Counted from the first letter of the stretch, positions 14,068-33,612 are shown. The stretch is 64,000 nucleotides of DNA from Bacteroidia bacterium (GCA_023262495.1 JALRAS010000002.1:2566-66565); one strand, 5' to 3'. Numbers and translations: made by a program. Notes: generated from the sequence alone by a model not told the origin.

Positions 14068-14115
14068 ATTCCGCTTATACTAATGCGGAATTCTGGTTAA
14101 TTGAGGTTAACCTCA
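14068..14115. promoter_or_regulatory. pair of inverted repeats upstream of the cobalamin-rSAM operon
   Basis: attccgc-N10-gcggaat (14068-14091) and perfect 14-bp palindrome tgaggttaacctca (14102-14115), about 45 bp upstream of the probable ATG at 14158. Confidence 0.35.
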
Positions 14116-15117
14116 GCGTATTGCGAATCACGTAAAAATGTATTATGTTTGACTTGTATGAATGCTTTTTCCTCCGCCACACTTACATCAAAAGAACAAA
14201 AACTATCGCGCAGTGAAACATCTGTAATCAAGTGTTTATTGTACTTTGATGTATTTCAATATCCGCTCACAGCAGCAGAGATTTTACGTTTTAATCATGG
14301 TATTCGCCACAAGGAAGAGTTGACACAAGTAATCAGTTCTTTACAAGAAAAAAAATTAATTCAAGAGCGAGAGGCGCATTATTTCATTTATGCATCTGAA
14401 CACATTTTAGACAGGCGTAAAAAAGGAAATGCCATGGCTGCGGCAATCATGCCAAAGGCAATACGATACGGAAAATTTATTGCAAAATTTCCATTTGTTG
14501 AAACCGTTTGCATATCGGGCGGACTATCTAAAAATTATTTTGACGAGCAGGGCGATGTTGATTTTTTTATCATTACTAAACCTCATCGATTGTGGCTCTG
14601 CAGAAGTATTTTGGTTGGATTTAAAAAAATATTTTTGCTCAACTCCAGAAAGTATTTTTGCGTGAATTACTTTGTTGACAGCAACAACTTGAGCATTCCT
14701 GACCAAAATATTTTTACCGCAACTGAAATTGCAACACTTATTCCCATACACAATAATTGGGGATACCACCGATTTATGCAGGAAAATAATTGGATTGCTG
14801 CGCTTCTGCCTAATGCAAGCATAACAAATGTAAGCCCAACATCTCAGAGCCAAACAAACATTTTTAAACAAGCAGGAGAATGGCTTTTTAGAGGAAAATT
14901 AGGGCATTTTGCCGATCAACAACTGTTTACATTAACGCTTAAAGTGTGGCAAAAAAAATTCAAACATTTTAGTAAAGATGATTTTGATTTACAAATGCGC
15001 TCACGCAAAAATGTAAGCAAACACCACCCGGGAGGATTTCAGGAAAAAGTGCTAAACAGGTTATCGGCCGCACAAGAAAAATTTTGTAACACGCATCAGA
15101 TAACATTTTCCGATTGA
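14101..15117 (+). CDS. hypothetical protein; possible winged-helix N-terminus plus nucleotidyltransferase-fold-like core (GG-x10-GDVDFFII); first gene of operon
   Basis: The ORF track starts at TTG 14101, and ATG 14158 (MNAFSSATL) is the more likely start. The gene is translationally coupled (ATGA overlap) to the next gene. I recognise no family with confidence. Confidence 0.6.
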   Translation: MRLTSAYCESRKNVLCLTCMNAFSSATLTSKEQKLSRSETSVIKCLLYFDVFQYPLTAAEILRFNHGIRHKEELTQVISSLQEKKLIQEREAHYFIYASEHILDRRKKGNAMAAAIMPKAIRYGKFIAKFPFVETVCISGGLSKNYFDEQGDVDFFIITKPHRLWLCRSILVGFKKIFLLNSRKYFCVNYFVDSNNLSIPDQNIFTATEIATLIPIHNNWGYHRFMQENNWIAALLPNASITNVSPTSQSQTNIFKQAGEWLFRGKLGHFADQQLFTLTLKVWQKKFKHFSKDDFDLQMRSRKNVSKHHPGGFQEKVLNRLSAAQEKFCNTHQITFSD

Positions 15118-16571
15118 TGAAGGTACTGTTTACACATTCTTATTTTTTGCGTTTTGATGCCAAGCAGTGGGAATTGCAGCAGCCCTACGCTCCTTTAGGC
15201 ACCATGTATGCCGCAGCTGTATTACGCAGGGCGGGTTTTGAGGTGCAATTGCATGATGTGATGTTTGCTCAAACTGCTTCAGAGATACTAGAACCCCTGC
15301 AAACACATCGTCCCAATTGGTTGGTTATTTATGACGATGGTTTTAACTACCTCACCAAAATGTGCCTAACCAACATGCGCGAAGCAGCATTTGAGATGAT
15401 TCAAATTGCTAAGAGGGAAGGCTGCAAAGTTGCTGTATCAAGCTCTGACAGTACCGATCATTATGCCTCCTATTTGCAAAAAGGTGCGGATGCTATTTTA
15501 TTGGGCGAGGCAGAAGAAACCTTAGAAGAGCTTATGAGTAAAGATGCCTCAGGTGCCGATTGGACAGACATTAAGGGCATTGCTTGCATGATGAATGAGG
15601 TGCCTGTGTGCAACCCTCGTAGGCCCGTAATAAAACAATTAGATGACATTCCTTTTCCTGCTTGGGACCTTGTTGATATTGATTCATATAAAAAACGTTG
15701 GATACAATCGAGTGGATATTTTTCAATCAACATGGGCACTACAAGAGGCTGCCCGTACAAGTGCAATTGGTGCGCCAAACCTATTTACGGAAACCGCTAC
15801 AATAGCCGTTCGCCCGAAAATGCAGTAACCGAAATAAAAATGTTGTATGAAAAATATCGGTTTGATCATATATGGTTTTGCGATGATATTTTTGGGTTAA
15901 AGCCCGGATGGGTGCAAGCATTTGCCGATTTGATAGAAAAAGAGAAACTACATTTCAATTTTAAAATTCAGTCGAGGGTAGACCTTTTACTTGAAGATGA
16001 ACAAATCGCTCATCTTGCTCGAGCAGGATGTAATAATGTATGGGTGGGCGCAGAAAGCGGTTCGCAGAAGATACTTGATGCGATGGATAAAGGCACCAAA
16101 GTAGAACAAATTTATACAGCCACACGTTTATTAAAGAAAAATGGGATTAAGCCGGCCTTCTTTATTCAGTTTGGCTATCCCGGAGAAAACATGAAAGATA
16201 TTGAGCAAACAATGCGCATGATTAATGATTTGCTTCCGGAAGATATTGGGGTATCGGTTTCTTACCCGCTGCCCGGTACCAAGTTTTATGAGCAGGTAAA
16301 GCATGAGCTCAGTGGTAAGGCCAATTGGTCAGATTCAGATGATTTGGCATTGATGTTTAAACATACCTATTCGGCACAATTTTACAGGCAACTTCACCGT
16401 TATGTGCACAAAAATTACAGAAAGCAACAGGCACTTAAAACCTTTAAAGATCTATTAAAATTGCAAAAAAAATACAATTTTGGTACTTTGAAGCGTGCTT
16501 TGTCGTATATATGGTATGTACCTGCCAGTATGATTGAAAAACAAAAACTAAAACAACTGCACCATGAATAA
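15114..16571 (+). CDS. B12-binding domain-containing radical SAM protein (paralog 1)
   Basis: N-terminal Rossmann-like cobalamin-binding domain (KVLFTHSYF...PLGTMYAAAVL). Radical-SAM CX3CX2C motif (GCPYKCNWC). Start overlaps the upstream stop (ATGA). Confidence 0.85.
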   Translation: MMKVLFTHSYFLRFDAKQWELQQPYAPLGTMYAAAVLRRAGFEVQLHDVMFAQTASEILEPLQTHRPNWLVIYDDGFNYLTKMCLTNMREAAFEMIQIAKREGCKVAVSSSDSTDHYASYLQKGADAILLGEAEETLEELMSKDASGADWTDIKGIACMMNEVPVCNPRRPVIKQLDDIPFPAWDLVDIDSYKKRWIQSSGYFSINMGTTRGCPYKCNWCAKPIYGNRYNSRSPENAVTEIKMLYEKYRFDHIWFCDDIFGLKPGWVQAFADLIEKEKLHFNFKIQSRVDLLLEDEQIAHLARAGCNNVWVGAESGSQKILDAMDKGTKVEQIYTATRLLKKNGIKPAFFIQFGYPGENMKDIEQTMRMINDLLPEDIGVSVSYPLPGTKFYEQVKHELSGKANWSDSDDLALMFKHTYSAQFYRQLHRYVHKNYRKQQALKTFKDLLKLQKKYNFGTLKRALSYIWYVPASMIEKQKLKQLHHE

Positions 16572-17376
16572 TACCAAAGAAGCATTTAATAGGGCTGCCG
16601 TTGATTATGATATTAGTTTTACCAACACACCCATCGGCAATATGCAAAGACAGCGTGTTTGGAATTACCTTGAACAAATTTTAAAAACCCGAAAGGCCGA
16701 TGTGCTTGAAATTAATTGTGGTACAGGAGAAGATGCGCTTTGGCTATCGAAACATTGCTATAGCATAACCGCAACAGACTTGGCAGGAAGTATGATAACG
16801 GTTGCCGAAAGTAAAAAAATTATTGCGGGAGTTCAGAATGTTTCGTTTAAAGCAGTTGATTTCTTTAACCTACATAAAACATTAGCCCCTCAACAATACG
16901 ATTTTATTTTCAGCAACTTTGGCGGACTTAATTGCGCCAACGAGCCCGAGTTGGAGCTATTGACCAAGGATTTCGCAAAGCTGCTCTATCCGGGAGGAAA
17001 AATAGTAATGGTAGTTATGGGAAAGTATTGCTTGTGGGAAACACTTTACTTTATGATGAAGTTTAAGTTTGGAAAAGCATTGCGCAGGTGGGATAACAAG
17101 GGTGTTCATACCATTATTGAAGATGAAGAGTTTGAAACATGGTATTACAGCATTGGTAGTTTGAAAAAAATATTTGCTCCTTATTTCACACTCACAGATG
17201 TGAAACCTATTGCCTTTGCTGTTCCTCCGTCATACATGCAGCCATTTTTTAATAGAAAACCCAATTGGCTCGCTCGATTGAATAAATGGGATGGTTTTTT
17301 TTCAAATTGGCGCTTGTTAGCCAATTTCAGCGATCATTTGGTGTTGACTTTTGAATTGAAAAATCCGGTGGATTGA
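16564..17376 (+). CDS. class I SAM-dependent methyltransferase
   Basis: Motif I VLEINCGTGEDALWL, post-I acidic residue (TATDLAG), and Methyltransf_11/25-like architecture. Overlaps the upstream gene by 8 nt. Confidence 0.8.
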   Translation: MNNTKEAFNRAAVDYDISFTNTPIGNMQRQRVWNYLEQILKTRKADVLEINCGTGEDALWLSKHCYSITATDLAGSMITVAESKKIIAGVQNVSFKAVDFFNLHKTLAPQQYDFIFSNFGGLNCANEPELELLTKDFAKLLYPGGKIVMVVMGKYCLWETLYFMMKFKFGKALRRWDNKGVHTIIEDEEFETWYYSIGSLKKIFAPYFTLTDVKPIAFAVPPSYMQPFFNRKPNWLARLNKWDGFFSNWRLLANFSDHLVLTFELKNPVD

Positions 17377-17380
17377 GCGC

Positions 17381-18793
17381 ATGGCAAATCAACACAAAGT
17401 AGTATTTACACATGGTTATTTTTTACATGAAGACCCAAAAGAAAGGGTAATCATGAGACCTTACCCACCATTGGGTATTTTATATTTGAGTGCCTATTTA
17501 GAGCAAAACGGCATTGATAACGAGGTGTTTGATGCTACCTTTTCAACCCCTGAATTATTGAAAGCTTATTTGCTTGAAAACAAGCCCGGTATTATTGGTA
17601 TTTACACCAACTTAATGACTAAGATTAATGTTTTAAAAATTATTGATATAGTCAAATATGAGCCAACATTAAAGCATACCAAAGTGATTTTGGGTGGTCC
17701 GGAAGTACGCAATCATGCCGAAAACTTTTTGAGGTATGGTGCCGATGTGATTGTTTTGGGAGAAGGAGAGGAAACCATGCTTGAACTTGTTAATCATTTC
17801 ATTCAGGGTTCAAACGAAGGTCTTTTAAGCATTAAAAGTATTGCTTTTATGAACGAGCAAAATCAGCTGCAACTTACCGAAAGTAGACCCCTGCTCAAGC
17901 AAATTGATTTGCTTCCTATGCCCAACCGCAAAAAAATAAATATGCAACTGTACTTTGATGCGTGGAAGAAATATCATGGACAGAGTGTGGTTTCGGTAAG
18001 CACAATGCGCGGTTGTCCATATACTTGTAAATGGTGCAGCAGGGCTGTTTATGGTCAAAGTTATCGCAGAAAAAGTGCTAAGTTGGTAGTTGATGAAATG
18101 GAGTATTTAAAAAACACTTACCAAGCAGATGCTATTTGGTTTGTTGATGATGTGTTTACAGTAAGCTTCAAGTGGTTAAAGGAGTTTGCCGATGAGGTTG
18201 CTGCCAGAAAATTGGTTTTCCCCTATGAAATCATTACAAGGGCCGATCGAATGAATGAGGAGGTCATTGATTTATTGAAAGCCAGCGGTTGCTTCCGCGT
18301 ATGGATTGGTGCCGAAAGTGGCTCTCAAAAAATAATTGATGCCATGGACAGACGTGTGGATGTAACTGTTGTGCGCAACATGATTCAGCTCTCACAACAA
18401 AAAGGGATTCAGGCGGGCACTTTTATCATGTTGGGTTATCCGGGTGAAACTACGGCAGATATCAATGAAACAATCCATCATTTAAAGGTTTCCAATCCTG
18501 ATTTGTACACCATTACCATTGCCTACCCAATTAAGGGAACCCCTCTTTACCAAGAGGTTGAAGCTGATTTTACAGTTTTTCCTGAGTGGGATAAGGGCAC
18601 CGACCGCGATATTGACTTTAAGCGCACCTATAACAAAAAGTTTTATGAATATGCCGTGAGATTGGTATATAATGAGGTGCGTTACCACAAAGAAAAACTG
18701 AAGGCTAACACCAATTATTTGTTGCTTCCTTATTTAAAAGCCAAAAGCATCGCGGCTAGAGGGGCTATGTTGTATGAACGGTTAAAATCATGA
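17381..18793 (+). CDS. B12-binding domain-containing radical SAM protein (paralog 2)
   Basis: KVVFTHGYF...PLGILYLSAYL cobalamin-binding domain. GCPYTCKWC radical-SAM motif. GAESGSQKIIDAMDR parallels paralog 1. Confidence 0.85.
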   Translation: MANQHKVVFTHGYFLHEDPKERVIMRPYPPLGILYLSAYLEQNGIDNEVFDATFSTPELLKAYLLENKPGIIGIYTNLMTKINVLKIIDIVKYEPTLKHTKVILGGPEVRNHAENFLRYGADVIVLGEGEETMLELVNHFIQGSNEGLLSIKSIAFMNEQNQLQLTESRPLLKQIDLLPMPNRKKINMQLYFDAWKKYHGQSVVSVSTMRGCPYTCKWCSRAVYGQSYRRKSAKLVVDEMEYLKNTYQADAIWFVDDVFTVSFKWLKEFADEVAARKLVFPYEIITRADRMNEEVIDLLKASGCFRVWIGAESGSQKIIDAMDRRVDVTVVRNMIQLSQQKGIQAGTFIMLGYPGETTADINETIHHLKVSNPDLYTITIAYPIKGTPLYQEVEADFTVFPEWDKGTDRDIDFKRTYNKKFYEYAVRLVYNEVRYHKEKLKANTNYLLLPYLKAKSIAARGAMLYERLKS

Positions 18794-20103
18794 AAGAAAT
18801 TTCTTTCCCAAAGCTGATTATCGCCACACTGGCAGTTACTTCGTTGGTGTTTTTTCTTAGCTTTAAATGGGTGAATAATCAGTGGCGCTATAATATTGCT
18901 GGTGATGGAAAAGGTTATTACATCTATTTACCGGCAGCATTTATCTATCATGATTTCAGTTATGAATTTACTAAACAAACAGAGTTGCAACATTATTCAG
19001 GGGATATACAACCCCCGGTAGCAACACTCTCCAACGGTGAAAAGCTCAACAAATATTTCGTTGGAGAAGCCATGTTGTTATTGCCATTTTTTTTGATTGC
19101 CTACTTGTTTTCTAATATATGTGGCGCAGCAGTTGATGGATACGGTTTTGTTTTTCAGGCAATGGTAAGTGTGGCTGCTCTTTTCTATGCGCTTGCCGGA
19201 CTTTGGCAAATGAAACGATTGCTCCAGCGTTTTCTAGTATCAGAAAATATTATTGCGTTGGTTCTGCTGCTGCTGTTTGCCGGCACAAATTTACTTCATT
19301 ACACACTGATGGAACCATCCATGTCGCACGTGTACTCATTCTTTGCCATTACAAGCTTTTTGGCTGTTACCGGTGATTATTGCATTCACAAAAAAGCTAT
19401 ACAGTTGTTTACTATGGCAAGTTTGTTGGGCATTATTTGTTTGATACGACCGGTGAATGTGCTTATTGTGCTTACAGTACCTTTTATTGGGTTCATGTTG
19501 AATAAACAAGTGTTGTCTCCTTTTAGTAAACAGTCCCTTACCTATGTTGTAGCTGCCTGTGTGTTTTTATGCATTGTTTTTATTCAATTATTGATGTATA
19601 AGTTACAGGTTGGCGAATGGTTGGTTTGGGCTTATGTTGATGAGGGCTTCAATTTTCGAAACCCTCACTTTTTTGATTTTTTATGCTCTTTTAGAAAGGG
19701 TTGGTTGGTTTATACGCCTGTATGTGCGGTGTCACTGTTGGCAGCATTTTATGTTTGGAGAAAAAATATAATGCTCTTGAGTGCCTTTTTTATTCCGCTT
19801 GTAGTGATTATTTATGTATTATCTAGTTGGCACGATTGGGCATACGGAGCAAGCTTGGGCAGCAGACCAATGGTAGATTTTAGTGGCTATGCAATCATAC
19901 CGTTAGCCTTGTGCTTCAATCAAATTAAGAGTTACACATACAAACTTTTGTTGGTATTTTTGGTGTGGTGTATGTTGTTGCTCAACATCATTCAAACCTA
20001 TCAAATCAACAAGTATATTTTGCTTTGGGATGAAATGACATTTGATGCTTACAAAGCTTCGTTTTTAAAAACACATGAGCGTTATGTACACATGCTCGAT
20101 TAA
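18790..20103 (+). CDS. polytopic integral membrane protein (about 11-13 TM helices; possibly GT-C-like or another membrane transferase)
   Basis: Hydrophobic throughout with an extracytoplasmic first loop. ATGA overlap with the upstream rSAM gene. Last gene of the operon. Confidence 0.55.
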   Translation: MKEISFPKLIIATLAVTSLVFFLSFKWVNNQWRYNIAGDGKGYYIYLPAAFIYHDFSYEFTKQTELQHYSGDIQPPVATLSNGEKLNKYFVGEAMLLLPFFLIAYLFSNICGAAVDGYGFVFQAMVSVAALFYALAGLWQMKRLLQRFLVSENIIALVLLLLFAGTNLLHYTLMEPSMSHVYSFFAITSFLAVTGDYCIHKKAIQLFTMASLLGIICLIRPVNVLIVLTVPFIGFMLNKQVLSPFSKQSLTYVVAACVFLCIVFIQLLMYKLQVGEWLVWAYVDEGFNFRNPHFFDFLCSFRKGWLVYTPVCAVSLLAAFYVWRKNIMLLSAFFIPLVVIIYVLSSWHDWAYGASLGSRPMVDFSGYAIIPLALCFNQIKSYTYKLLLVFLVWCMLLLNIIQTYQINKYILLWDEMTFDAYKASFLKTHERYVHMLD

Positions 20104-20186: not shown

Positions 20187-22109
20187 ATGAAGAAATTTTT
20201 TCAGTTGTGTTTTTTGTTGCTGATTAGCTTTCAGGTATACGGCCAAAAGCTAAAAACACTGATTGCAGAAGGCAATAAGGCCATGGAAGATAAGGAATAT
20301 TATCTGGCCGAAAACTATTTTAAAAAAGCCATAGCCACCGACTCCAATAGCATTGCCTTACAATACCTGTATGCAGAGGCCTGCAGACTCGATTTAAATT
20401 ACACCGTTGCAGAGCGCTGGTATAACAAGGTGTATAAAAAAGACAATGGAAAGTTATATCCCGATGCCTTACTGTACTTAGCCATATGTAAAAAAAGCAA
20501 CGGCAAATACAAGGATGCCATTAAAATGTTTGACAAATACGCCAAAAGAAACACTAAAAAACATCCCGAAAAATCAGCTGTTGCAGCGCAGGAGTCAAAA
20601 AATTGCAGCTATGCCTTGATGCTGATGAAAAACCCAATGTCCATACAAGTGAATCATATCGACAGCATGGTAAACAGCAAAGGCGGGGAGTATGCTCCTT
20701 TTGAAAAAGACAGTGTGCTTTACTTTACAGGAATTAAAACTGCGGGAAATAAAATTGATAGCAGAATTTATTACTCAAAGGTTAGCGGTTACCGATTCAG
20801 CAAATTGGTTGAGCTCGACTCACTATTACGCAAAGAGGGCGTAACAATGAGCAATGTGGTACTTACGCCTGACGGAAAACAACTGTATTGTACCCGCTGC
20901 GAATCGAATACTGACACCAAAAATAATTGTGGCATCTATTCATACCGCTTGGTTGAGGGTAAGTATACCGCGGCAACGCCACTACCTGCTGAAATTAACC
21001 AAGCGGGCACGCTAAACACACATCCCTCCTTGCATATCGTTAACGGCAATACAATCCTCTATTTTTCGAGCAACCGTAAAGGTGGAGAAGGGGGCATGGA
21101 TATTTGGTACAGCAAACAAAATAAAGATGGCAGTTGGCAAACACCTGTAAATGCGGGAAAACAGGTAAACAGCCCCGAGGACGAAATCACTCCGTTTTTC
21201 TGTAACCCCTGTCAAATATTGTATTTCAGCAGTACTTTTCATCAAGGAATGGGAGGTTTTGATATTTTTAAATCGCGTTGGCAAAACGGACAATTCTCCT
21301 CTCCTGAAAATGCAGGATACCCAATTAACAGTCCACAAAACGACATGTATTTTAAATACAACGACAAGCGCAGCAAGGCCTATTTTATTTCTAACCGAGA
21401 AGGTTCCTATTATGAAAAATATGAAACTTGTTGTAATGATATTTATTATATCAACCTCCCACAAGTTACCGACAGCATAGTTACCGAAGAGCCCCAAAAA
21501 GACACTGTTTTTATGGCAAAATCGCGGTTACAAACATTGGTACCGCTTACCTTATATTTTAACAACGATGAGCCCGATAGTAAAACATTGAACACCACTA
21601 CCAAGAAAACATATACCGAAACAGTGAACAGTTATTTGGCGCTTAAGAATAATTACTTAAAGGCCTATGCCAAAGGGCTTGATGAAGAGCGTAAAGAAAT
21701 AGCGATGAATGAAATGAATGATTTTTTTGAAGACTCGGTTCGCGCCTCTTACGAGGAACTTGAACAATTTGCCTCGCTCATGCTGTTTGTATTGAAACAA
21801 GGAGAAAAAGTAAGTTTAACCTTGAAAGGGTATTGCAGTCCGCTCGCTTCCACCTCATACAACGTAAATTTGGCCAAGAGGCGTCTTTCGAGTCTTGTCA
21901 ACTATTTTAATACCTATGGCAATGGCGCTTTGAAGCCTTATTTAGAGGATGAAAGTAAGGTAAAAATAAACATTGAGGAGATAGGAGAATTAAAAGCATC
22001 GCCATTGGTAAGCGACAACCCCAACGATGCCACCAATGCAGTATACAGCCGCGCTGCAGCGCTCGAAAGAAAAATACAAATTATTGCTGTTTCTACTAAG
22101 GCGGAGTGA
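20187..22109 (+). CDS. TPR / TolB-like beta-propeller (PD40 repeats) / C-terminal OmpA-like domain protein
   Basis: Signal peptide. N-terminal TPR-like helices. PD40-like repeats (PDGKQLYCT, ILYFSS, AYFISNREG). C-terminal OmpA-like motif GYCSPLASTSYNVNLAKRRLSSLVNYF. Confidence 0.7.
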   Translation: MKKFFQLCFLLLISFQVYGQKLKTLIAEGNKAMEDKEYYLAENYFKKAIATDSNSIALQYLYAEACRLDLNYTVAERWYNKVYKKDNGKLYPDALLYLAICKKSNGKYKDAIKMFDKYAKRNTKKHPEKSAVAAQESKNCSYALMLMKNPMSIQVNHIDSMVNSKGGEYAPFEKDSVLYFTGIKTAGNKIDSRIYYSKVSGYRFSKLVELDSLLRKEGVTMSNVVLTPDGKQLYCTRCESNTDTKNNCGIYSYRLVEGKYTAATPLPAEINQAGTLNTHPSLHIVNGNTILYFSSNRKGGEGGMDIWYSKQNKDGSWQTPVNAGKQVNSPEDEITPFFCNPCQILYFSSTFHQGMGGFDIFKSRWQNGQFSSPENAGYPINSPQNDMYFKYNDKRSKAYFISNREGSYYEKYETCCNDIYYINLPQVTDSIVTEEPQKDTVFMAKSRLQTLVPLTLYFNNDEPDSKTLNTTTKKTYTETVNSYLALKNNYLKAYAKGLDEERKEIAMNEMNDFFEDSVRASYEELEQFASLMLFVLKQGEKVSLTLKGYCSPLASTSYNVNLAKRRLSSLVNYFNTYGNGALKPYLEDESKVKINIEEIGELKASPLVSDNPNDATNAVYSRAAALERKIQIIAVSTKAE

Positions 22110-22207: not shown

Positions 22208-22525
22208 TTATTTTCTTTTAGCCTTTACTTTAATCGTTTGCGTAGTTACAATTCCTCCCGTTAAACCACTGATTAAAAAATCACCCAGATTAAACCTAGT
22301 AATTACCTCACAATTTCCATCACCTGGAGTATTCACACTTGCTCTGCCTAGTGGCATAATTCCCCAAAACAACCAAATTTGCTTTCCTTTTCCATAGGTG
22401 TATTCATTTCCCTGTGTCTCTCTATATGCTCCAACGCTAGTTTTAGTAGTCATACATGATGTTAATGATGAAGCCACAAACAAGGTTAAGCAACCTGCTA
22501 AAAATAAAGTTTTAAATTTTTTCAT
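22208..22525 (-). CDS. Bor-family-like small lipoprotein
   Basis: Lipoprotein signal MKKFKTLFLAGCLTLFVASSLTSC. C-terminal ...GDFLISGLTGGIVTTQTIKVKA resembles the Bor (phage lambda serum-resistance lipoprotein) family pattern. Confidence 0.55.
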   Translation of the reverse strand: MKKFKTLFLAGCLTLFVASSLTSCMTTKTSVGAYRETQGNEYTYGKGKQIWLFWGIMPLGRASVNTPGDGNCEVITRFNLGDFLISGLTGGIVTTQTIKVKAKRK

Positions 22526-28130: not shown

Positions 28131-28874
28131 CTATCCCTTGAAAATCTTTGTGCTCATTAATCCCCGCTTATTTAAAAAATACTGCATGGCTGTAATCATG
28201 CAACCGGTACCGTAGGTTACGCTTCTGCGGAAGTTAATCGAACTTGATTCCTTTTCATATTTGGTGGGGCAAGTTACCTCTGCAATGGTATATCCTTCAT
28301 AGCAAAGTTGGGCTAGCATTTGGTTATCAAAAACAAAATCATCGCTATTGTGGTGATAGTTAATTTTCTTGAGTGCATCTGCACTAAAAGCCCTGTAGCC
28401 GGTGTGATACTCTGATAACTTTTGACCCATCAACAAGTTTTGTGTAAAGGTCATTAACCTGTTAAAAACATATTTGTACAAGGGCATACCGCCCTGTAAA
28501 GCACCTTTCCCTAAAATACGCGAGGCCAATACTACTTCATACACGCCCTCGGCAATTACTGAGCTCATGGCACGTATCAGTTTAGGTGTGTACTGATAAT
28601 CGGGATGGAGCATGACAACAATATCTGCATTGAGCGTTAAAGCGTAGTCATAGCATGTTTTTTGATTGCCTCCATAGCCTCTGTTTTTTTGATGTTGCAA
28701 CACGTGTTTGATGCCTAATATTTTTGCAGTTTCAACAGTATTATCTGTACTTGCATCATCGGTTATCACCACCTCATCAACAATATCCATAGGAATTTCA
28801 TAATAGGTTTTTTCCAAGGTTTTTGCGGCATTGTAAGCAGGTAACACCACTACAATTTTTTTATTGTTTAACAT
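28131..28874 (-). CDS. GT2 family glycosyltransferase, polyprenyl-phosphate sugar synthase (Dpm1/GtrB-like)
   Basis: VVVLPAYNAAKTL...VITDDASTDNT GT-A DxD-type motifs. Confidence 0.85.
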   Translation of the reverse strand: MLNNKKIVVVLPAYNAAKTLEKTYYEIPMDIVDEVVITDDASTDNTVETAKILGIKHVLQHQKNRGYGGNQKTCYDYALTLNADIVVMLHPDYQYTPKLIRAMSSVIAEGVYEVVLASRILGKGALQGGMPLYKYVFNRLMTFTQNLLMGQKLSEYHTGYRAFSADALKKINYHHNSDDFVFDNQMLAQLCYEGYTIAEVTCPTKYEKESSSINFRRSVTYGTGCMITAMQYFLNKRGLMSTKIFKG

Positions 28875-28880
28875 ACGCTT

Positions 28881-30377
28881 TTATTGTTTGATATACAAAT
28901 CAATATATCGGGTATCAAGTACTATTTTTTTGTAGGAGCCATCTGGCTCTTCACCCTTTAGGGTAATAATATACCGGCTTCTTTCAGTAATGTAATCTGA
29001 GCTAATATATTTGTATCTGATCAGGTAGTTCTGAAGACCCCAATTCTTTATTAATGCATTGCTTAAACCAGCTATTTCGCCAATAGGTATAATGGGTAAA
29101 ACTATATAAACATCGTGCAATAAGTCATTGTCTCTTTTGGTTTGGTTATATTGGAAAGAAGCAAAAATAAACCCTGAAACCAGGAGCGCCACACTTACTA
29201 TTTGCCATCTTAAATATATCCTCTGTTTTGCTTGTAAACGTTGAATAAATAATCTTACAAACGGTGCTATGATCAGCGCCAAAGCAATGGCAAAAAACGG
29301 TAGCGCTGTTACCAAATAAAAACCTCTTTGTTCTTTCGTTAACATCAGTGGTAATGCACCGCTGAGCCCAATCATAAAAAAACTCAATACCCCGGTCTTA
29401 TTTACCTTTTTGAACTCTTGTATTAAGTTATACTTTTTAGCAAGTACTGATACCAACACAATTATACCTATAACCGGGAGCAACTCACTAAAAAGTCTGT
29501 ATAGTAAATAAAAATGACTACCTGTGGTGTCGTGAACTCCTGTAACAAATGCCTTGCTCAGTCTGTTTTCGAGGTACAACTGCAAACTACTTAAACTATT
29601 GTCAAACATCACAAAAATGAATCCGTAAAGCATTGTAAAGGCCAACAAACCAAACATGAATAATTTGATGCCGCGCCATATTTTTTGCTTCCCCTCAAAA
29701 TAGCTGAAAATTATAATGGCCACAATGGGGAATGAGCCCTGTATACCTTTTGTAAGCGTTGACAGTACAACCGAAAGCGCAACTAATATCATCCAACCTA
29801 TTTGCTTATTGAGGTTAGGCTCGTAATGGCTTTTAACGGTGAATAAAACTGCTGCTGTGGCAAATACTACCATCACTGTTTCTTCAACAAGATTTGCATA
29901 TGCCCAAAAAACAACCGGAATAATGACATAAAAAAATATTGGAAGCCATGCCAAGGTCTTACTGTCTTCTTTTTGTGTGTGCAGGGCTTTCCAAATTTGT
30001 TGGATTAAAAAAACTTCAACACAAAGCATCACAAAACAGAAGAAACGTTCCACATATAAACTACTGCCAAACACTTTAAAAAACAATGCCATTAACCCAA
30101 AATAAAGTGGCGGCTGCTCCCTAAAAATAACCATGCCGGCTCTGCTGTAATTGGGTTCCCAAAAGGTGCCCAATCCTTGCGAAAGATTGTGACTTACGCA
30201 AACGTACAAAGAGCCATCCATAAACATACCTTCCTGAATGAGCTGAGAAACAATAAGGAACAATATGACGGAAAAAGTGATCCCGTAAAAAGGGTTGATA
30301 TTGATTTTCATAAATTTATACAAATGTATAATTTCTATATCTAAGCCATGCAAAAAATCAAAAGCATATCTTTGCAC
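28881..30377 (-). CDS. GT-C fold membrane glycosyltransferase (ArnT/PMT-like, GT39/83-type)
   Basis: Polytopic, about 498 aa, placed immediately upstream of the Dpm1-like GT2 gene, which is the classic synthase-plus-GT-C pairing. Confidence 0.6.
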   Translation of the reverse strand: MQRYAFDFLHGLDIEIIHLYKFMKININPFYGITFSVILFLIVSQLIQEGMFMDGSLYVCVSHNLSQGLGTFWEPNYSRAGMVIFREQPPLYFGLMALFFKVFGSSLYVERFFCFVMLCVEVFLIQQIWKALHTQKEDSKTLAWLPIFFYVIIPVVFWAYANLVEETVMVVFATAAVLFTVKSHYEPNLNKQIGWMILVALSVVLSTLTKGIQGSFPIVAIIIFSYFEGKQKIWRGIKLFMFGLLAFTMLYGFIFVMFDNSLSSLQLYLENRLSKAFVTGVHDTTGSHFYLLYRLFSELLPVIGIIVLVSVLAKKYNLIQEFKKVNKTGVLSFFMIGLSGALPLMLTKEQRGFYLVTALPFFAIALALIIAPFVRLFIQRLQAKQRIYLRWQIVSVALLVSGFIFASFQYNQTKRDNDLLHDVYIVLPIIPIGEIAGLSNALIKNWGLQNYLIRYKYISSDYITERSRYIITLKGEEPDGSYKKIVLDTRYIDLYIKQ

Positions 30378-30394: not shown

Positions 30395-31936
30395 ATGAGC
30401 AGAAGAGTAAGACTTAGATTTGCGCCAAGCCCAACAGGTCCATTGCACATTGGCGGTGTAAGAACAGCCCTTTACAGTTATTTATATGCCAAACAAAAGG
30501 GTGGTGATTTTTTATTACGCATTGAAGATACCGACCAAACGCGGTTTGTGCCTGGTGCCGAAGAATACATTATTGAATCGCTAAACTGGTGCGGAATTAA
30601 AATTGATGAAGGAGTAAGTATAGGTGGTGTACATGCTCCTTATCGACAAAGTGAAAGAAAAGAACTAGGCATTTATAAAAAATATGCCGAACAGCTCATT
30701 GAAAGCGGTCATGCCTATTATGCGTTTGACACTGCAGAGGAGTTAGACACAGCAAGAAAAACAGCAGAGTCTCAAGGAGCATCTTTTTCATACAATGCCC
30801 AAAGTCGTGGCCAATTGCGCAACTCTTTGAGTTTGCCCGACAGTGAGGTAAAAGCTTTGTTGTCAACCAACAACTTTGTTATTCGCCTAAAAGTAAACGC
30901 TAATGAAGAAATTCATTTAAACGATTTAATCAGAGGCGATGTAAGATTTAACTCCAATATTGTTGATGATAAAGTGCTTTTAAAATCTGATGGTATGCCC
31001 ACTTATCATTTGGCTCATATTGTTGATGACTATTTAATGGAAATTACACATGCCGTTCGTGGTGAAGAGTGGTTGCCAAGTGCCCCCGCCCATGTGCTGA
31101 TTTATCAATATTTAGGTTGGACTGATTTAATGCCTCGATATGCTCATTTACCCCTATTGCTGAAGCCCGATGGCAATGGTAAGTTAAGTAAACGCGATGG
31201 CGACAGACTAGGTTTTCCGGTGTTTCCATTAGAGTGGAAAGATCCATCAACCGGAGAAATATCTAGTGGCTATCGGGAGCGTGGTTATGAACCCGAGGCC
31301 TTTGTAAACATGTTGGCTTTGTTGGGTTGGAACCCCGGAACAGAGCAGGAAATAATGAATATGAGTGAGCTGATTGAAAAATTTTCTTTTGAGCATGTGC
31401 ACAAGGCCGGAGCCAAATTCAATCCTGAAAAAACATTGTGGTTTAACACGCAATATGTGCACCACATGGATAATGATGTTTTGGGAAAAAAGCTTAAAAA
31501 ACAAGTGATTGCAGCTTTAAACACTGAGGAAGATGACGTGCGTTTACAAAACGATTATTTATTTGCCGCTGCCGCTTTAATTAAGCCGCGTGTTCATTTT
31601 ACTTATGAGCTTTTTAATACTGCGAGTTACCTATTTGAGGCTCCAATAGCATATGATAAACAGGTCATAGAAAAGCGCTGGAAACCCGAGTTGCTATCTT
31701 TTTTTACACAGCTTGGAGCTGATTTCGATGCCTTACAAGAATTTACAGCTGTAAATGCCGATGCACAGTTTAAGGCAACTGCCGCCAATGCAGGCATAAA
31801 ACCGGGTGATGTGTTGCAGTTGTTGCGTGTGATGCTCAGTGGACAGGGCAGCGGTGTTGATTTGTTTGGCATGATTGCCTTGTTGGGAAAAACAGAAGTA
31901 ATGGCAAGAATTAAAAAAGCGCTTACCACATTTTAA
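30395..31936 (+). CDS. gltX: glutamate--tRNA ligase
   Basis: RFAPSPTGPLHIGGVRTALYSY HIGH motif and KLSKR. Confidence 0.95.
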   Translation: MSRRVRLRFAPSPTGPLHIGGVRTALYSYLYAKQKGGDFLLRIEDTDQTRFVPGAEEYIIESLNWCGIKIDEGVSIGGVHAPYRQSERKELGIYKKYAEQLIESGHAYYAFDTAEELDTARKTAESQGASFSYNAQSRGQLRNSLSLPDSEVKALLSTNNFVIRLKVNANEEIHLNDLIRGDVRFNSNIVDDKVLLKSDGMPTYHLAHIVDDYLMEITHAVRGEEWLPSAPAHVLIYQYLGWTDLMPRYAHLPLLLKPDGNGKLSKRDGDRLGFPVFPLEWKDPSTGEISSGYRERGYEPEAFVNMLALLGWNPGTEQEIMNMSELIEKFSFEHVHKAGAKFNPEKTLWFNTQYVHHMDNDVLGKKLKKQVIAALNTEEDDVRLQNDYLFAAAALIKPRVHFTYELFNTASYLFEAPIAYDKQVIEKRWKPELLSFFTQLGADFDALQEFTAVNADAQFKATAANAGIKPGDVLQLLRVMLSGQGSGVDLFGMIALLGKTEVMARIKKALTTF

Positions 31937-31959
31937 ATTGAAATAAAAAATAAACCACA

Positions 31960-33612
31960 ATGATTACTGAAAAAGGTCATAACTTTCTTGAGGAAATTAT
32001 TAGCGAAGAGCTGGGTGCCGGAAAATTTCCAAACGGTATTATCACGCGCTTTCCTCCTGAACCCAATGGATATTTACACATAGGGCATGCAAAGTCCATT
32101 TGCTTAAACTTTGGATTAGCCAAGCAGTTTGGCGGCAAAACCAATTTGAGATTTGATGATACCAACCCCGTTACCGAGGACACAGAGTATGTTGAAAGCA
32201 TCATGGAAGATGTGAAATGGCTTGGCTTTGAATGGAGTCAGGTATTGTATTCCTCCGACTATTTTGAAACGCTCTACCAATACGCTGTGAAACTGATTAA
32301 AAAGGGGAAGGCCTATGTGGATGATTCAACGGCTGCCGAGATTGCCGCCTTGAAAGGAACTCCCACAGAGCCCGGAAAACCAGGCCCTTACCGCGACAGA
32401 AGCATAGAGGATAATTTAGCATTATTTGAACGCATGCGTAATGGCGAATTTGCTGATGGTGCCAAGGTGCTTCGTGCCAAGATTGATTTATCATCACCCA
32501 ACATGCACCTGCGCGACCCATTGATGTACCGTATTAAACATGCACACCATCATCGTACAGGCAACAATTGGTGTATTTACCCGATGTATGATTTTGCTCA
32601 CGGACAATGCGACTCAATTGAAGAAATTACACACTCCATTTGCACGCTCGAATTTGAGGTACATAGACCTTTATATGAATGGTTTATCAACGAATTAGAA
32701 ATTTATCCTAGCCGACAGTTTGAGTTTGCACGCCTCAACTTAAACTACACCGTGATGAGCAAGCGTAAGTTATTGCAATTGGTAAACGAAAAGCATGTAA
32801 ACGGTTGGGATGATCCGCGTATGCCTACCATTAGCGGCTTACGCAGGAGAGGTTTTACTCCTGCAAGTATTCGTCATTTTTGTGAAAAAATTGGTGTTGC
32901 CCGTAGAGAAAATGTAATCGACTTTAGTTTGTTGGAGTTTTGTATTCGTGAGGATTTAAACAAAACTGCTCATCGTGTGATGGTGGTGGAGGATCCAATC
33001 AAATTAATCATTAATAATTATCCCGATGGAAAAGTTGAGATGATGCCGGGTGAAGTGAATCCAGAGGATACCGAAAGTGGCACGCGCATGATTCCTTTTT
33101 CTAAAGAACTGCTCATTGAGCGCGAAGACTTTATGGAAAATCCTCCAAAAAAATATTTCCGCTTATTCCCCAATGGCATGGTACGTTTAAAGCATGGCTT
33201 TATTGTAAAGTGCACCGGTTTTGATAAAGATGCCAATGGTAATGTAACCGCAGTTTATTGCGATTACTTTCCTGAAAGCCGCAGCGGACACGACACAAGT
33301 GGCTTAAATGCAAAAGGTGTTTTACACTGGGTAAGCGCAGCACAAGCTATTCCTGTTGAGCTAAGAATTTACGATCGTTTATTCAGTGTTGAAAACCCAA
33401 ATGCTGAGGAGGGTGATTTTAAATCATACTTAAATCCCGACAGTTTAAAAGTTGTGGAAGGTTTTGCAGAACCAGCATTGGCAAGCGCAACGCACGAAAA
33501 TCGCTATCAGTTTTTACGTAAAGGATATTTCTGTTTGGATAAAGACAGCCAACCTCAAAGCATGATTTTTAATCGCACGGTTACCTTAAAAGATGGCTGG
33601 AAGAACAACTAA
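31960..33612 (+). CDS. glnS: glutamine--tRNA ligase
   Basis: [28 protein letters not shown] motif, VMSKR, and GlnRS anticodon-binding beta-barrels. Confidence 0.95.

Follow-up and report, generated by a model that had tools for sequence, protein, structure and literature searches.

A Bacteroidota gene cassette pairing a putative polymerase-beta-type nucleotidyltransferase with predicted B12-dependent radical SAM enzymes: a candidate for surface-glycan tailoring

The window, a 64,000-nucleotide stretch of DNA from a Bacteroidia bacterium, carries five tightly packed open reading frames on the plus strand (g1–g5). The first, g1 (14158–15117; ATG start, with a TTG at 14101 as a possible longer form), encodes a 319-aa protein in which a winged helix precedes a predicted nucleotidyltransferase core of polymerase-beta type, with a helical domain at the C-terminus. 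It is followed by a predicted class B (B12-binding) radical SAM enzyme, g2 (15114–16571; 485 aa, orthogroup 'a'), a class I SAM-dependent methyltransferase, g3 (16564–17376; 270 aa), a second predicted class B radical SAM enzyme, g4 (17381–18793; 470 aa, orthogroup 'b'), and a membrane glycosyltransferase of GT-C fold and polyprenyl-phosphate-sugar type, g5 (18790–20103; 437 aa). The initial annotation had described one translationally coupled unit, and the overlapping or near-abutting junctions bear this out: g2 and g3 overlap by 8 nt at 16564, a 4-nt gap (17377–17380) precedes g4, and g4 and g5 share an ATGA at 18790. The ATGA reported for g1/g2 needs correction. That junction reads TTGATGA, with g2 starting at either TTG 15114 (4-nt overlap) or ATG 15117 (1-nt TGATG overlap), and coupling is tight either way. 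The motifs GCPYKCNWC, GCPYTCKWC and GG...GDVDFF noted previously are all present in the translated ORFs. Recurrence of this gene order in dozens of distant genomes puts the arrangement well outside what chance would give, and we are nearly certain that these genes form a real co-transcribed cassette.

Two palindromes do lie upstream of g1, at 14069–14092 (ATTCCGC-N10-GCGGAAT) and 14102–14115 (TGAGGTTAACCTCA). In the upstream alignment, neither is conserved in relatives L085, L086 and L003, and the dedicated regulation proposed for them is therefore unsupported. The sole invariant upstream blocks, in an alignment with three relatives whose g1 is 59–78% identical, are TTG, AAATGTATTATGTTTG and the ATG. 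These belong to a promoter-like element on the plus strand (14121–14151), in which TTG (14121–14123) is separated by 20 nt from TATGTTTG (14144–14151). The latter fits the Bacteroidetes -7 consensus TAnnTTTG and ends 6 nt before the g1 ATG. From the published consensus, we take this element to be a Bacteroidetes sigma-A promoter, from which the operon transcript would be near-leaderless. No Rfam cobalamin riboswitch was found in the window or in seven related loci. In syntenic relatives, the gene upstream of the operon encodes PurQ-type glutamine amidotransferase domains. The downstream gene had been labelled a T9SS protein; with scores of 150 for the PorE model (curated cut-off 600) and 186 for the CHU_0125 OmpA-like family (cut-off 620), it falls so far short of both that the label is not established.

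The defining member of the cassette is g1. Residues S120, G121, D133 and D135 are invariant in an alignment of 46 sequences and sit on strands 114–120 and 135–140 of the structure model, so that the metal-binding motif, hG[GS]-x(9-13)-DxD, lies on the central sheet as in the polymerase-beta-type superfamily. Since this G[SG]...DxD motif is invariably kept, g1 is probably catalytic. The third helix of its winged helix is variable and acidic, which argues against DNA binding. The family has invariant motifs of its own (KKxFLLNSRKYFCxNY and SKHHP), no significant sequence match among PDB chains and no Foldseek match at E ≤ 1e-3; the nearest nucleotidyltransferase folds among the weak matches are kanamycin, spectinomycin and lincosamide nucleotidyltransferases, and protein AMPylators (DrrA, MNT) also appear. 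The family is large: a collection with one genome per species contains at least 515 matches, and there are 3086 clusters at 90% identity and 1427 representatives at 50% identity (E ≤ 1e-30). The cultured genera named among its carriers, which include Tenacibaculum, Aquimarina, Kordia, Winogradskyella and Flavivirga, all belong to the Bacteroidota, and three MAG labels outside this phylum (L035, L044, L055) appear to reflect mis-binning.

Both radical SAM proteins have the B12-binding domain and CX3CX2C cluster previously ascribed to them. Scores for Radical_SAM (PF04055) are 87.8 bits for g2 and 72.9 bits for g4 (cut-off 29.5), those for B12-binding (PF02310) are 35.5 bits, barely over the 32.1 cut-off, for g2 and 61.6 bits for g4, and the [4Fe-4S] motif reads CPYKCNWC and CPYTCKWC, respectively. 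By these domain matches both are predicted members of the class B (cobalamin-dependent) superfamily, 35% identical to each other across 443 aa. By sequence, 9ccb (MgmA/QCMT; E = 6e-20 for g2 and 3e-15 for g4) is the nearest solved structure, with AprD4 the second-closest solved homologue. Neither protein reached the NCBIfam cut-off for BchE, HpnJ, PhpK, MgmA, the ladderane-type lipid radical SAM enzymes, HpnR, ApyD or AprD4: g2 scored highest with BchE (144 vs 481) and HpnJ (129 vs 578), followed by MgmA (111 vs 360), and g4 with PhpK (164 vs 600), BchE (145 vs 481) and lipid radical SAM (137 vs 360). The class B group includes enzymes that are not methylases, such as BchE, HpnJ, AprD4 and OxsB, and the fact that two of these give the best profiles of g2 counts against methylation; we put action as C-methyltransferases at roughly even chances. 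The product of g3 has a Rossmann-type SAM-binding domain (Methyltransf_25, 51.7 bits vs a cut-off of 27; Methyltransf_11, 38.4 vs 21.2), and its best NCBIfam matches, CpaM and UbiE/MenG, fall far under their cut-offs.

The fifth product shows a polytopic GT-C fold, in which D39 and D55, invariant in 38 sequences, lie between helix 6–27 and helix 92–111. Conserved acidic residues in the first extracytoplasmic loop are a GT-C hallmark, and this loop would face the periplasm. No Pfam match was obtained for g5, which falls into none of the named GT-C families PMT_2, GT87 and LA_3751/2 (NCBIfam LA_3751/2, 31.5 bits vs a cut-off of 200).

Conservation across relatives revises the view of all five genes as one unit. 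In a set of 84 related loci, g2 adjoins g1 in 76 of 79, typically with an overlap of 4 or 8 nt. Among the 66 loci with enough flank, g3 was found in 62, g4 in 52, and g2, g3 and g4 together in 51. The conserved core is thus g1–g4, and g5 is a lineage-specific addition that joins the operon only in close relatives of the window, more distant g5 homologues being unlinked to radical SAM genes. In about half of the loci, the core is preceded by a third B12 radical SAM enzyme and a methyltransferase of the HemK/PrmC-like type, a type that acts as protein amide N-methylase. In the lineage of the window, the cassette occupies a stable chromosomal position between housekeeping genes. The earlier statement that the gene set matches no described pathway stands, with NCBIfam/Pfam family matches far below cut-offs; our literature search found no description of the cassette and no experiment on it.

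The neighbourhoods point to glycan assembly. Among 50 loci sampled with a full ±10 kb, 39 contain at least one clustered glycosyltransferase family and 26 a GT-C enzyme; also recurring nearby are a flippase-like polytopic protein, an ABC exporter (10 of the 50), methyltransferases including FkbM, Wzy_C, polysaccharide deacetylase and an epimerase, and Wzy and Wzz occur in loci L052, L093 and L094. In three metagenomic representatives, one for each case, g1 is fused to a PglC/WbaP-type Bac_transf phosphoglycosyltransferase (PGT), to a GT4 glycosyltransferase or to a methyltransferase (MT), in the contexts GT4-GT4-Wzy-[PGT-g1]-epimerase, Wzy-[GT4-g1]-rSAM-...-carbamoyltransferase-...-B12 rSAM, and Wzz-Wzy-[MT-g1]-B12 rSAM-MT-B12 rSAM, respectively. 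Part of the neighbourhood association could be synteny inherited within families. The operon in the lineage of the window lacks Wzy, Wzz, Wzx and a cytoplasmic glycosyltransferase, and a GT2 and PMT_2 pair lies 8 kb from the operon in the window. That g5 is the only glycan gene in this operon counts against a glycan function.

Given the GT-C fold of g5, the neighbourhoods and the gene fusions, the 'lipid, glycan or cofactor' tailoring originally suggested can be kept as tailoring and narrowed to a glycan or glycoconjugate, a link that we consider probable. Whether g1–g4 are, more specifically, a Bacteroidota-wide cassette tailoring a polyprenyl-phosphate-linked surface glycan or glycoconjugate (O-antigen, exopolysaccharide, capsule, or lipid- or protein-linked sugar) is an evenly balanced proposition, and our preferred one. 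We infer the substrate, the methylase role, the part played by g1 and the order in which the steps run as follows. At the cytoplasmic face of the membrane, g1 would use an NTP to attach a handle, nucleotidyl or phospho, to a sugar or a small substituent in a lipid- or nucleotide-linked intermediate, a role that we propose tentatively and with some doubt. Using a [4Fe-4S]/SAM-derived radical and methylcobalamin, g2 and g4 would modify unactivated carbons of the intermediate, most likely by C-methylation, and g3 would methylate a heteroatom. The modified unit would then be flipped and transferred in the periplasm by g5, or in other lineages by Wzy, a ligase or a GT-C enzyme of GT87 or PMT_2 type. 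Here, the cassette is coupled transcriptionally and translationally to its own GT-C glycosyltransferase. Counting against this scheme, a polymerase-beta-fold nucleotidyltransferase in glycan assembly is, to our knowledge, unusual outside the LicD/fukutin branch.

A lipid methylation pathway is an unlikely alternative, in which an isoprenoid or acyl lipid (polyprenyl carrier, quinone, hopanoid-like or membrane lipid) would be methylated like HpnP/HpnR hopanoids, and g5 or other glycosyltransferases would later act on a glycolipid head group. Its appeal comes from the HpnJ, HpnR and 'lipid biosynthesis B12-binding/radical SAM' (ladderane-type) models, which are among the best matches of g2, g4 and the third radical SAM enzyme, and from the neighbours: YceI-like (a polyisoprenoid-binding family) and DUF5777 genes adjoin the cassette in two arrangements (15 and 14 of the 50 loci, respectively), as do GDSL-lipase and patatin genes in some loci. 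However, these profile matches are 3–6 fold under the cut-offs, and enzymes that modify proteins or phosphonates match at least as well. Genes for squalene, hopene or another lipid scaffold are missing from the recurrent neighbours, and the fusions of g1 to PGT and GT4 beside Wzy/Wzz point to the sugar portion. Were the substrate polyprenyl-linked, this alternative would overlap with surface-glycan tailoring.

We regard as very unlikely that the substrate is a peptide or protein, C-methylated as by PoyC, ApyD, MgmA or Mmp10, recognised by the g1 winged helix and exported by the ABC transporter. The MgmA/QCMT structure nearest to the radical SAM enzymes is that of a protein glutamine C-methylase, ApyD and RiPP C-methyltransferase models are among the profile matches, and the HemK/PrmC-like methyltransferase, the ABC exporter and the weak AMPylator matches of g1 are all in keeping with such a substrate. 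Yet among 88 loci we found no conserved small ORF outside known genes, all clusters lying inside g1, g2, g3 or g4, and no RiPP precursor peptide gene beside the modifying enzymes; moreover, g1 abuts the preceding gene in many loci, with no space for a precursor, and glycosyltransferases dominate the context. The initial annotation had likewise favoured membrane or glycan tailoring over a classical natural-product cluster, and the glycosyltransferase neighbours and lack of a conserved precursor agree with it. Least probable is a diffusible secondary metabolite (an aminoglycoside-like pseudo-oligosaccharide or a phosphonate, with g1 as an ANT-type resistance or activation enzyme), for which AprD4, the antibiotic nucleotidyltransferase folds nearest to g1, the PhpK-type P-methyltransferase match of g4, the gentamicin pathway (two B12 radical SAM methylases, two class I methyltransferases and glycosyltransferases) and the pairing of cytidylyltransferases with B12 radical SAM methylases in the fosfomycin and phosphinothricin pathways all speak, but against which stand the lack of PEP mutase, 2-deoxy-scyllo-inosose synthase and an aminotransferase set among recurrent neighbours, the stable housekeeping position in the lineage of the window, and the location inside Wzy/Wzz-type loci in other lineages.

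Class B radical SAM enzymes are known to us from antibiotics, bacteriochlorophyll, hopanoids, RiPPs and methanogen enzymes, and not from bacterial surface-polysaccharide assembly. Returning to surface-glycan tailoring, its most specific form, which we would sooner doubt than accept, is that in Bacteroidota B12 radical SAM enzymes C-methylate nucleotide- or polyprenyl-linked envelope sugars into branched-chain forms, with a new polymerase-beta nucleotidyltransferase family supplying the handle. If true, surface-glycan structure, and hence recognition by phages, predators and hosts, would be B12-dependent in hundreds of marine and soil Bacteroidota. At species level, the cassette occurs at least about 500 times, with a nucleotidyltransferase family of its own that is uncurated. 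Should envelope glycans be what it modifies, radical C–H chemistry would be added to glycan biosynthesis, a function would be defined for a large 'hypothetical' family, and envelope structure would be tied to B12 availability in Bacteroidota, a group with many B12 auxotrophs. Its presence in several cultured genera makes the proposal directly testable.

Among known systems, the class B enzymes MgmA/QCMT (PDB 9ccb), TokK, CysS, TsrM, Fom3, GenK/GenD1 and PhpK share with g2 and g4 the B12-binding Rossmann domain, radical SAM core and CX3CX2C motif. The putative methylases g2 and g4 differ in lying 3–6 fold under every curated cut-off, in constituting two separate orthogroups that keep company with a nucleotidyltransferase, and in a substrate class that would apparently be surface glycan; we know of no characterised class B enzyme with such a substrate. 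Systems that transfer lipid-linked monosaccharides by a GT2 synthase and a GT-C transferase (ArnC/ArnT, Dpm1/PMT-type) lack radical SAM enzymes, unlike the cassette, and g5 differs from them in matching no Pfam GT-C family. With KNTase/ANT(4'), AAD(9), LinB and MNT, g1 shares G[SG]...DxD and, as predicted, the polymerase-beta core and the helical C-terminal domain; it differs by the extra N-terminal winged helix, its family-specific invariant motifs, and a context that is biosynthetic rather than one of resistance or toxin–antitoxin. WbdD carries out terminal O-antigen modification by kinase and methyltransferase capping, and resembles the cassette in bringing a nucleotide-using transferase and methyltransferases into polysaccharide loci with ABC exporters or Wzz/Wzy; it has no radical SAM partner and no sequence or fold relationship to the cassette, for which a similar capping role is only a possibility. 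Fom1/Fom3 (fosfomycin) and PhpF/PhpK (phosphinothricin) have in common with the cassette the obligatory pairing of a nucleotidyltransferase and a class B radical SAM enzyme: the Fom1 cytidylyltransferase domain or PhpF adds a nucleotidyl handle, and B12 radical SAM methylation by Fom3 or PhpK follows. These transferases have a MobA/GlmU-like fold, whereas g1 is predicted to be of polymerase-beta type with a winged helix, and the cassette neighbourhoods lack PEP mutase and phosphonate genes; the adjacency of g1 and g2 (76/79 loci) fits a Fom-like logic of 'nucleotidylate, then radical-methylate'.

Five plus-strand ORFs were found at 14158–20103, where the initial annotation had placed an overlapping operon: g1 (14158–15117), encoding a predicted polymerase-beta-type nucleotidyltransferase with a winged helix; g2 (15114–16571) and g4 (17381–18793), encoding B12-binding radical SAM enzymes; g3 (16564–17376), encoding a methyltransferase; and g5 (18790–20103), encoding a GT-C membrane protein. 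Three of the proposed junctions were borne out: g2 and g3 overlap by 8 nt at 16564, g3 and g4 are 4 nt apart (17377–17380), and g4 and g5 share an ATGA at 18790. The ATGA overlap proposed for g1 and g2 had to be corrected, as the sequence there is TTGATGA, which leaves TTG 15114 or ATG 15117 as the start of g2. Pfam identified g3 as a class I methyltransferase and gave both radical SAM proteins the claimed Radical_SAM domain (87.8 bits for g2, 72.9 for g4) and B12-binding domain (35.5 and 61.6 bits, cut-off 32.1); the two are 35% identical across 443 residues. The G+C content across the region was unremarkable. Overall, Pfam, NCBIfam and PADLOC scans of the gene products returned superfamily-level or sub-threshold matches only, and a role as a defence system was rejected, the PADLOC matches being weak and generic.

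By sequence, the solved structure nearest to both g2 (E 6e-20) and g4 (E 3e-15) was 9ccb, identified in the literature as the MCR glutamine C-methyltransferase MgmA/QCMT, followed by AprD4, CysS, TsrM and TokK. Every NCBIfam class B family, including BchE, HpnJ, PhpK, MgmA, HpnR, ApyD and the ladderane-type lipid enzyme, scored 3–6 fold under its curated cut-off, and on these comparisons g2 and g4 are predicted class B radical SAM enzymes outside all described families.

The g1 product had no match at default thresholds in Pfam, NCBIfam or PADLOC, and no relative in a PDB search by sequence. Its homologues formed 3086 clusters in a metagenome and genome protein collection, nearly all from Bacteroidota. 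An alignment of 46 members, 43 of which matched PF01909 weakly, contained strikingly invariant motifs: YFDxFxYP in the N-terminal domain, SG[SG]LSK...DxDFF, KKxFLLNSRKYFCxNY, IPDxNIFTATE and SRKNVSKHHPxGFQ. The winged helix has a variable, acidic recognition helix, and its conserved residues are located in helix 1 and strand 1; we therefore take this domain to serve a structural or partner-binding purpose rather than to bind DNA. The components of the g1–g4 cassette belong to known superfamilies, with g1 representing a new predicted nucleotidyltransferase family; for the gene set as a whole, searches of open-access full text yielded no paper, and no curated model was found.

In a collection with one genome per species, at least 515 matches to g1 were obtained; carriers among the matches listed included Tenacibaculum, Aquimarina, Kordia, Winogradskyella, Flavivirga and Lacinutrix, as well as MAGs of Chitinophagaceae and Saprospiraceae. 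Since cultured marine flavobacteria carry the cassette, it is a good experimental target. In 84 loci, ORFs were called and matched against the five window proteins, with loci having enough flank serving as denominators. A g2 orthologue immediately followed g1 in 76 of 79 loci, mostly with a 4- or 8-nt overlap, while a g3-type methyltransferase was present in 62/66, a g4 orthologue in 52/66, and g2, g3 and g4 together in 51/66. Directly upstream of g1, a third B12 radical SAM enzyme (25–30% identical) occurred in 29 of 73 loci and a 225-aa HemK/PrmC/MTS-like methyltransferase in 37 of 73; both are absent from the window. Three typical Bacteroidota-like cassettes (L035, L044, L055) came from MAGs labelled Bifidobacterium, Methylacidiphilales and Arenicella; L055 has the gene layout of a Lutibacter locus (L045) and matches the window proteins with almost the same scores as that locus, and these labels are probably binning errors in public MAGs.

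Across loci, conservation of the five-gene set extended to g1–g4, whereas g5 directly follows g4 only in close relatives of the window (L003–L005, L085–L088). In one further locus (L028) a g5 homologue lies ~5 kb downstream of g4, and homologues at 36–38% identity occupy other sites, where they stand by themselves or follow GT2 genes and have no radical SAM gene next to them, which rules out g5 as a core member. The conserved unit is therefore g1–g4, and the five-gene form in the window is one lineage's variant of it. A PDB search with g5 by sequence gave no match. In GT-C enzymes the catalytic acids are located in the loop that follows the first membrane-spanning helix; D39 and D55 of g5 are invariant and occupy this position, so that the 'polytopic membrane protein' of the initial annotation can be refined to a predicted GT-C glycosyltransferase of the polyprenyl-phosphate-sugar type.

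Downstream, 83 nt past the operon, a 640-aa TPR/PD40/OmpA-like protein (20187–22109, plus strand) is kept in all close relatives, including one that lacks g5 (L006), and may be co-transcribed with the operon in this lineage; it scored below the cut-offs of the CHU_0125 OmpA-like family (186 vs 620) and PorE (150 vs 600). Further along, a DUF805 RNA motif (RF03081; 22539–22607, minus strand) scored 69.3 bits against a gathering threshold of 51.1; immediately downstream of it is a lipoprotein-like ORF of 105 aa (22208–22525, minus strand), and a related DUF805b motif occurs in another locus (L094, 693–727). Adjacent class I Glu/Gln-type aminoacyl-tRNA synthetase genes, GluRS-like (513 aa) then GlnRS-like (550 aa), occupy 30395–33612 (plus strand).

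Two palindromes upstream of g1 had been put forward as dedicated regulation. Both are present, but they are not kept in an upstream alignment of the window with three relatives (g1 at 59–78% identity), which rules them out as operators. The sole invariant blocks in this alignment were TTG (14121–14123), AAATGTATTATGTTTG (14136–14151) and the ATG at 14158. TATGTTTG fits the Bacteroidetes −7 consensus TAnnTTTG, with TTG 20 nt upstream, a pattern suggestive of an ordinary promoter of the housekeeping type and a transcript whose leader is very short or absent. With just 6 nt between the −7-type box and the g1 ATG, and with a Shine-Dalgarno sequence nowhere visible at 14136–14160, the mRNA is predicted to be leaderless or nearly so, starting at about 14157–14158. 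The conserved box also supports ATG 14158 as the probable start of g1 over TTG 14101, which was rejected because the box would fall inside that extension and homologues begin near the ATG. Neither the window nor seven related loci contained a cobalamin riboswitch or any other relevant Rfam element, and riboswitch control of the operon was dismissed; a scan for consensus promoters and terminators gave fewer hits in the sequence than in its own shuffled controls.

All neighbouring ORFs were clustered, and cluster representatives were scanned. Recurrent neighbours included GT87, PMT_2 and another GT-C-like membrane protein; GT2 and GT4 enzymes, Wzy_C, polysaccharide deacetylase and NAD epimerase; a 9-TM flippase-like protein, a half-size ABC exporter and an OMP beta-barrel protein; FkbM and other methyltransferases and a SPASM radical SAM enzyme; and YceI and DUF5777. 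Among 50 loci with full ±10 kb, 26 had a GT-C enzyme and 39 at least one clustered glycosyltransferase family. When 1.84 billion representative proteins were searched with a g1 profile, 1427 relatives reached E ≤ 1e-30, and three of these are fusion proteins encoded in classic polysaccharide clusters: a PglC/WbaP-type phosphoglycosyltransferase (PGT, Bac_transf) fused to g1 (GT4-GT4-Wzy_C-[PGT-g1]-epimerase); a GT4 fusion (Bac_transf, DUF1972, Wzy_C, RgpF, Wzy_C, [GT4-g1], radical SAM, carbamoyltransferase, B12 radical SAM); and a class I methyltransferase (MT) fusion (Wzz, Wzy_C, [MT-g1], B12 radical SAM, MT, B12 radical SAM). These fusions are the strongest evidence that g1 and the cassette work on polyprenyl-phosphate-linked glycan assembly.

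Several further associations were seen. On the minus strand of the window, a co-directional pair (28131–30377) encodes a PMT_2-type GT-C glycosyltransferase (28881–30377) and a GT2 (28131–28874). The latter is 65% identical to the GT2 adjoining the cassette in 12 other loci; the neighbouring PMT_2, however, is non-orthologous to theirs, and the GT2 was not counted as a system member. The pair could form a Dpm1/PMT-like or ArnC/ArnT-like lipid-linked sugar system; according to a review, the core O-glycosylation transferase of Bacteroidota is still undiscovered. In L009–L036 type loci (e.g. L019, 4220–5353 and 5356–6528), two uncharacterised families with no Pfam or NCBIfam match recur beside the cassette, a lipoprotein of ~377 aa that carries a CXXCH (CLWCH) motif (20 loci) and a 9-TM protein of ~390 aa (17 loci). 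A Btu/Fec-type ABC importer (Peripla_BP_2, FecCD, ATPase) ~6 kb upstream of g1 in five Flavobacteriaceae loci (L032, L042, L046, L054, L064) could supply B12; with RmuC and a thioesterase intervening, it was treated as family synteny rather than a functional partner. In L027, L039, L041, L050, L061, L071 and others, the cassette is flanked by a YceI-like protein and a DUF5777 membrane beta-barrel, together with a small cytochrome-c-like protein and, in some cases, an ECF sigma/anti-sigma pair. Their position depends on the lineage, being upstream of the cassette in Flavobacteriaceae but downstream of it in others, and the occurrence of two independent arrangements hints at a functional link.

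The same YceI/DUF5777 neighbours, together with profile similarity to HpnJ, HpnR and the lipid radical SAM enzyme, would fit a lipid methylation pathway, which we consider unlikely, as these scores are all sub-threshold and lipid-scaffold genes do not recur among cassette neighbours. Modification of a RiPP or protein is more doubtful still: similarity to MgmA and ApyD speaks for it, as do the ABC exporter and the methyltransferase of HemK type, yet the g1 winged helix appears unlike a RiPP recognition element and, in agreement with the initial annotation's failure to see a precursor peptide gene, a search for conserved small ORFs returned only shadows of known genes. An aminoglycoside- or phosphonate-type metabolite, suggested by similarities to AprD4, ANT and PhpK, is the least probable, the scaffold genes being absent from the recurrent neighbours.

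We therefore rate the cassette as a probable glycan-tailoring set built on class B radical SAM chemistry. The system is probably glycan-linked, while for its radical SAM enzymes acting as C-methylases we see an even chance. Because its G[SG]...DxD site is intact, g1 would use an NTP as donor of a nucleotidyl or phospho group; g2, g4 and, where present, the third enzyme would each alter an unactivated carbon, most likely by methylcobalamin-dependent methylation, and O or N atoms would be the targets of g3 and the remaining class I methyltransferases. Once flipped, the modified unit would be transferred to its acceptor by a GT-C enzyme (g5 in the window), Wzy or a ligase. A handle role for g1 is a tentative suggestion. 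In fosfomycin biosynthesis (Fom1/Fom3), a nucleotidyl handle is followed by B12 radical SAM methylation; the near-obligatory coupling of g1 to g2 is similar in logic, although the folds differ.
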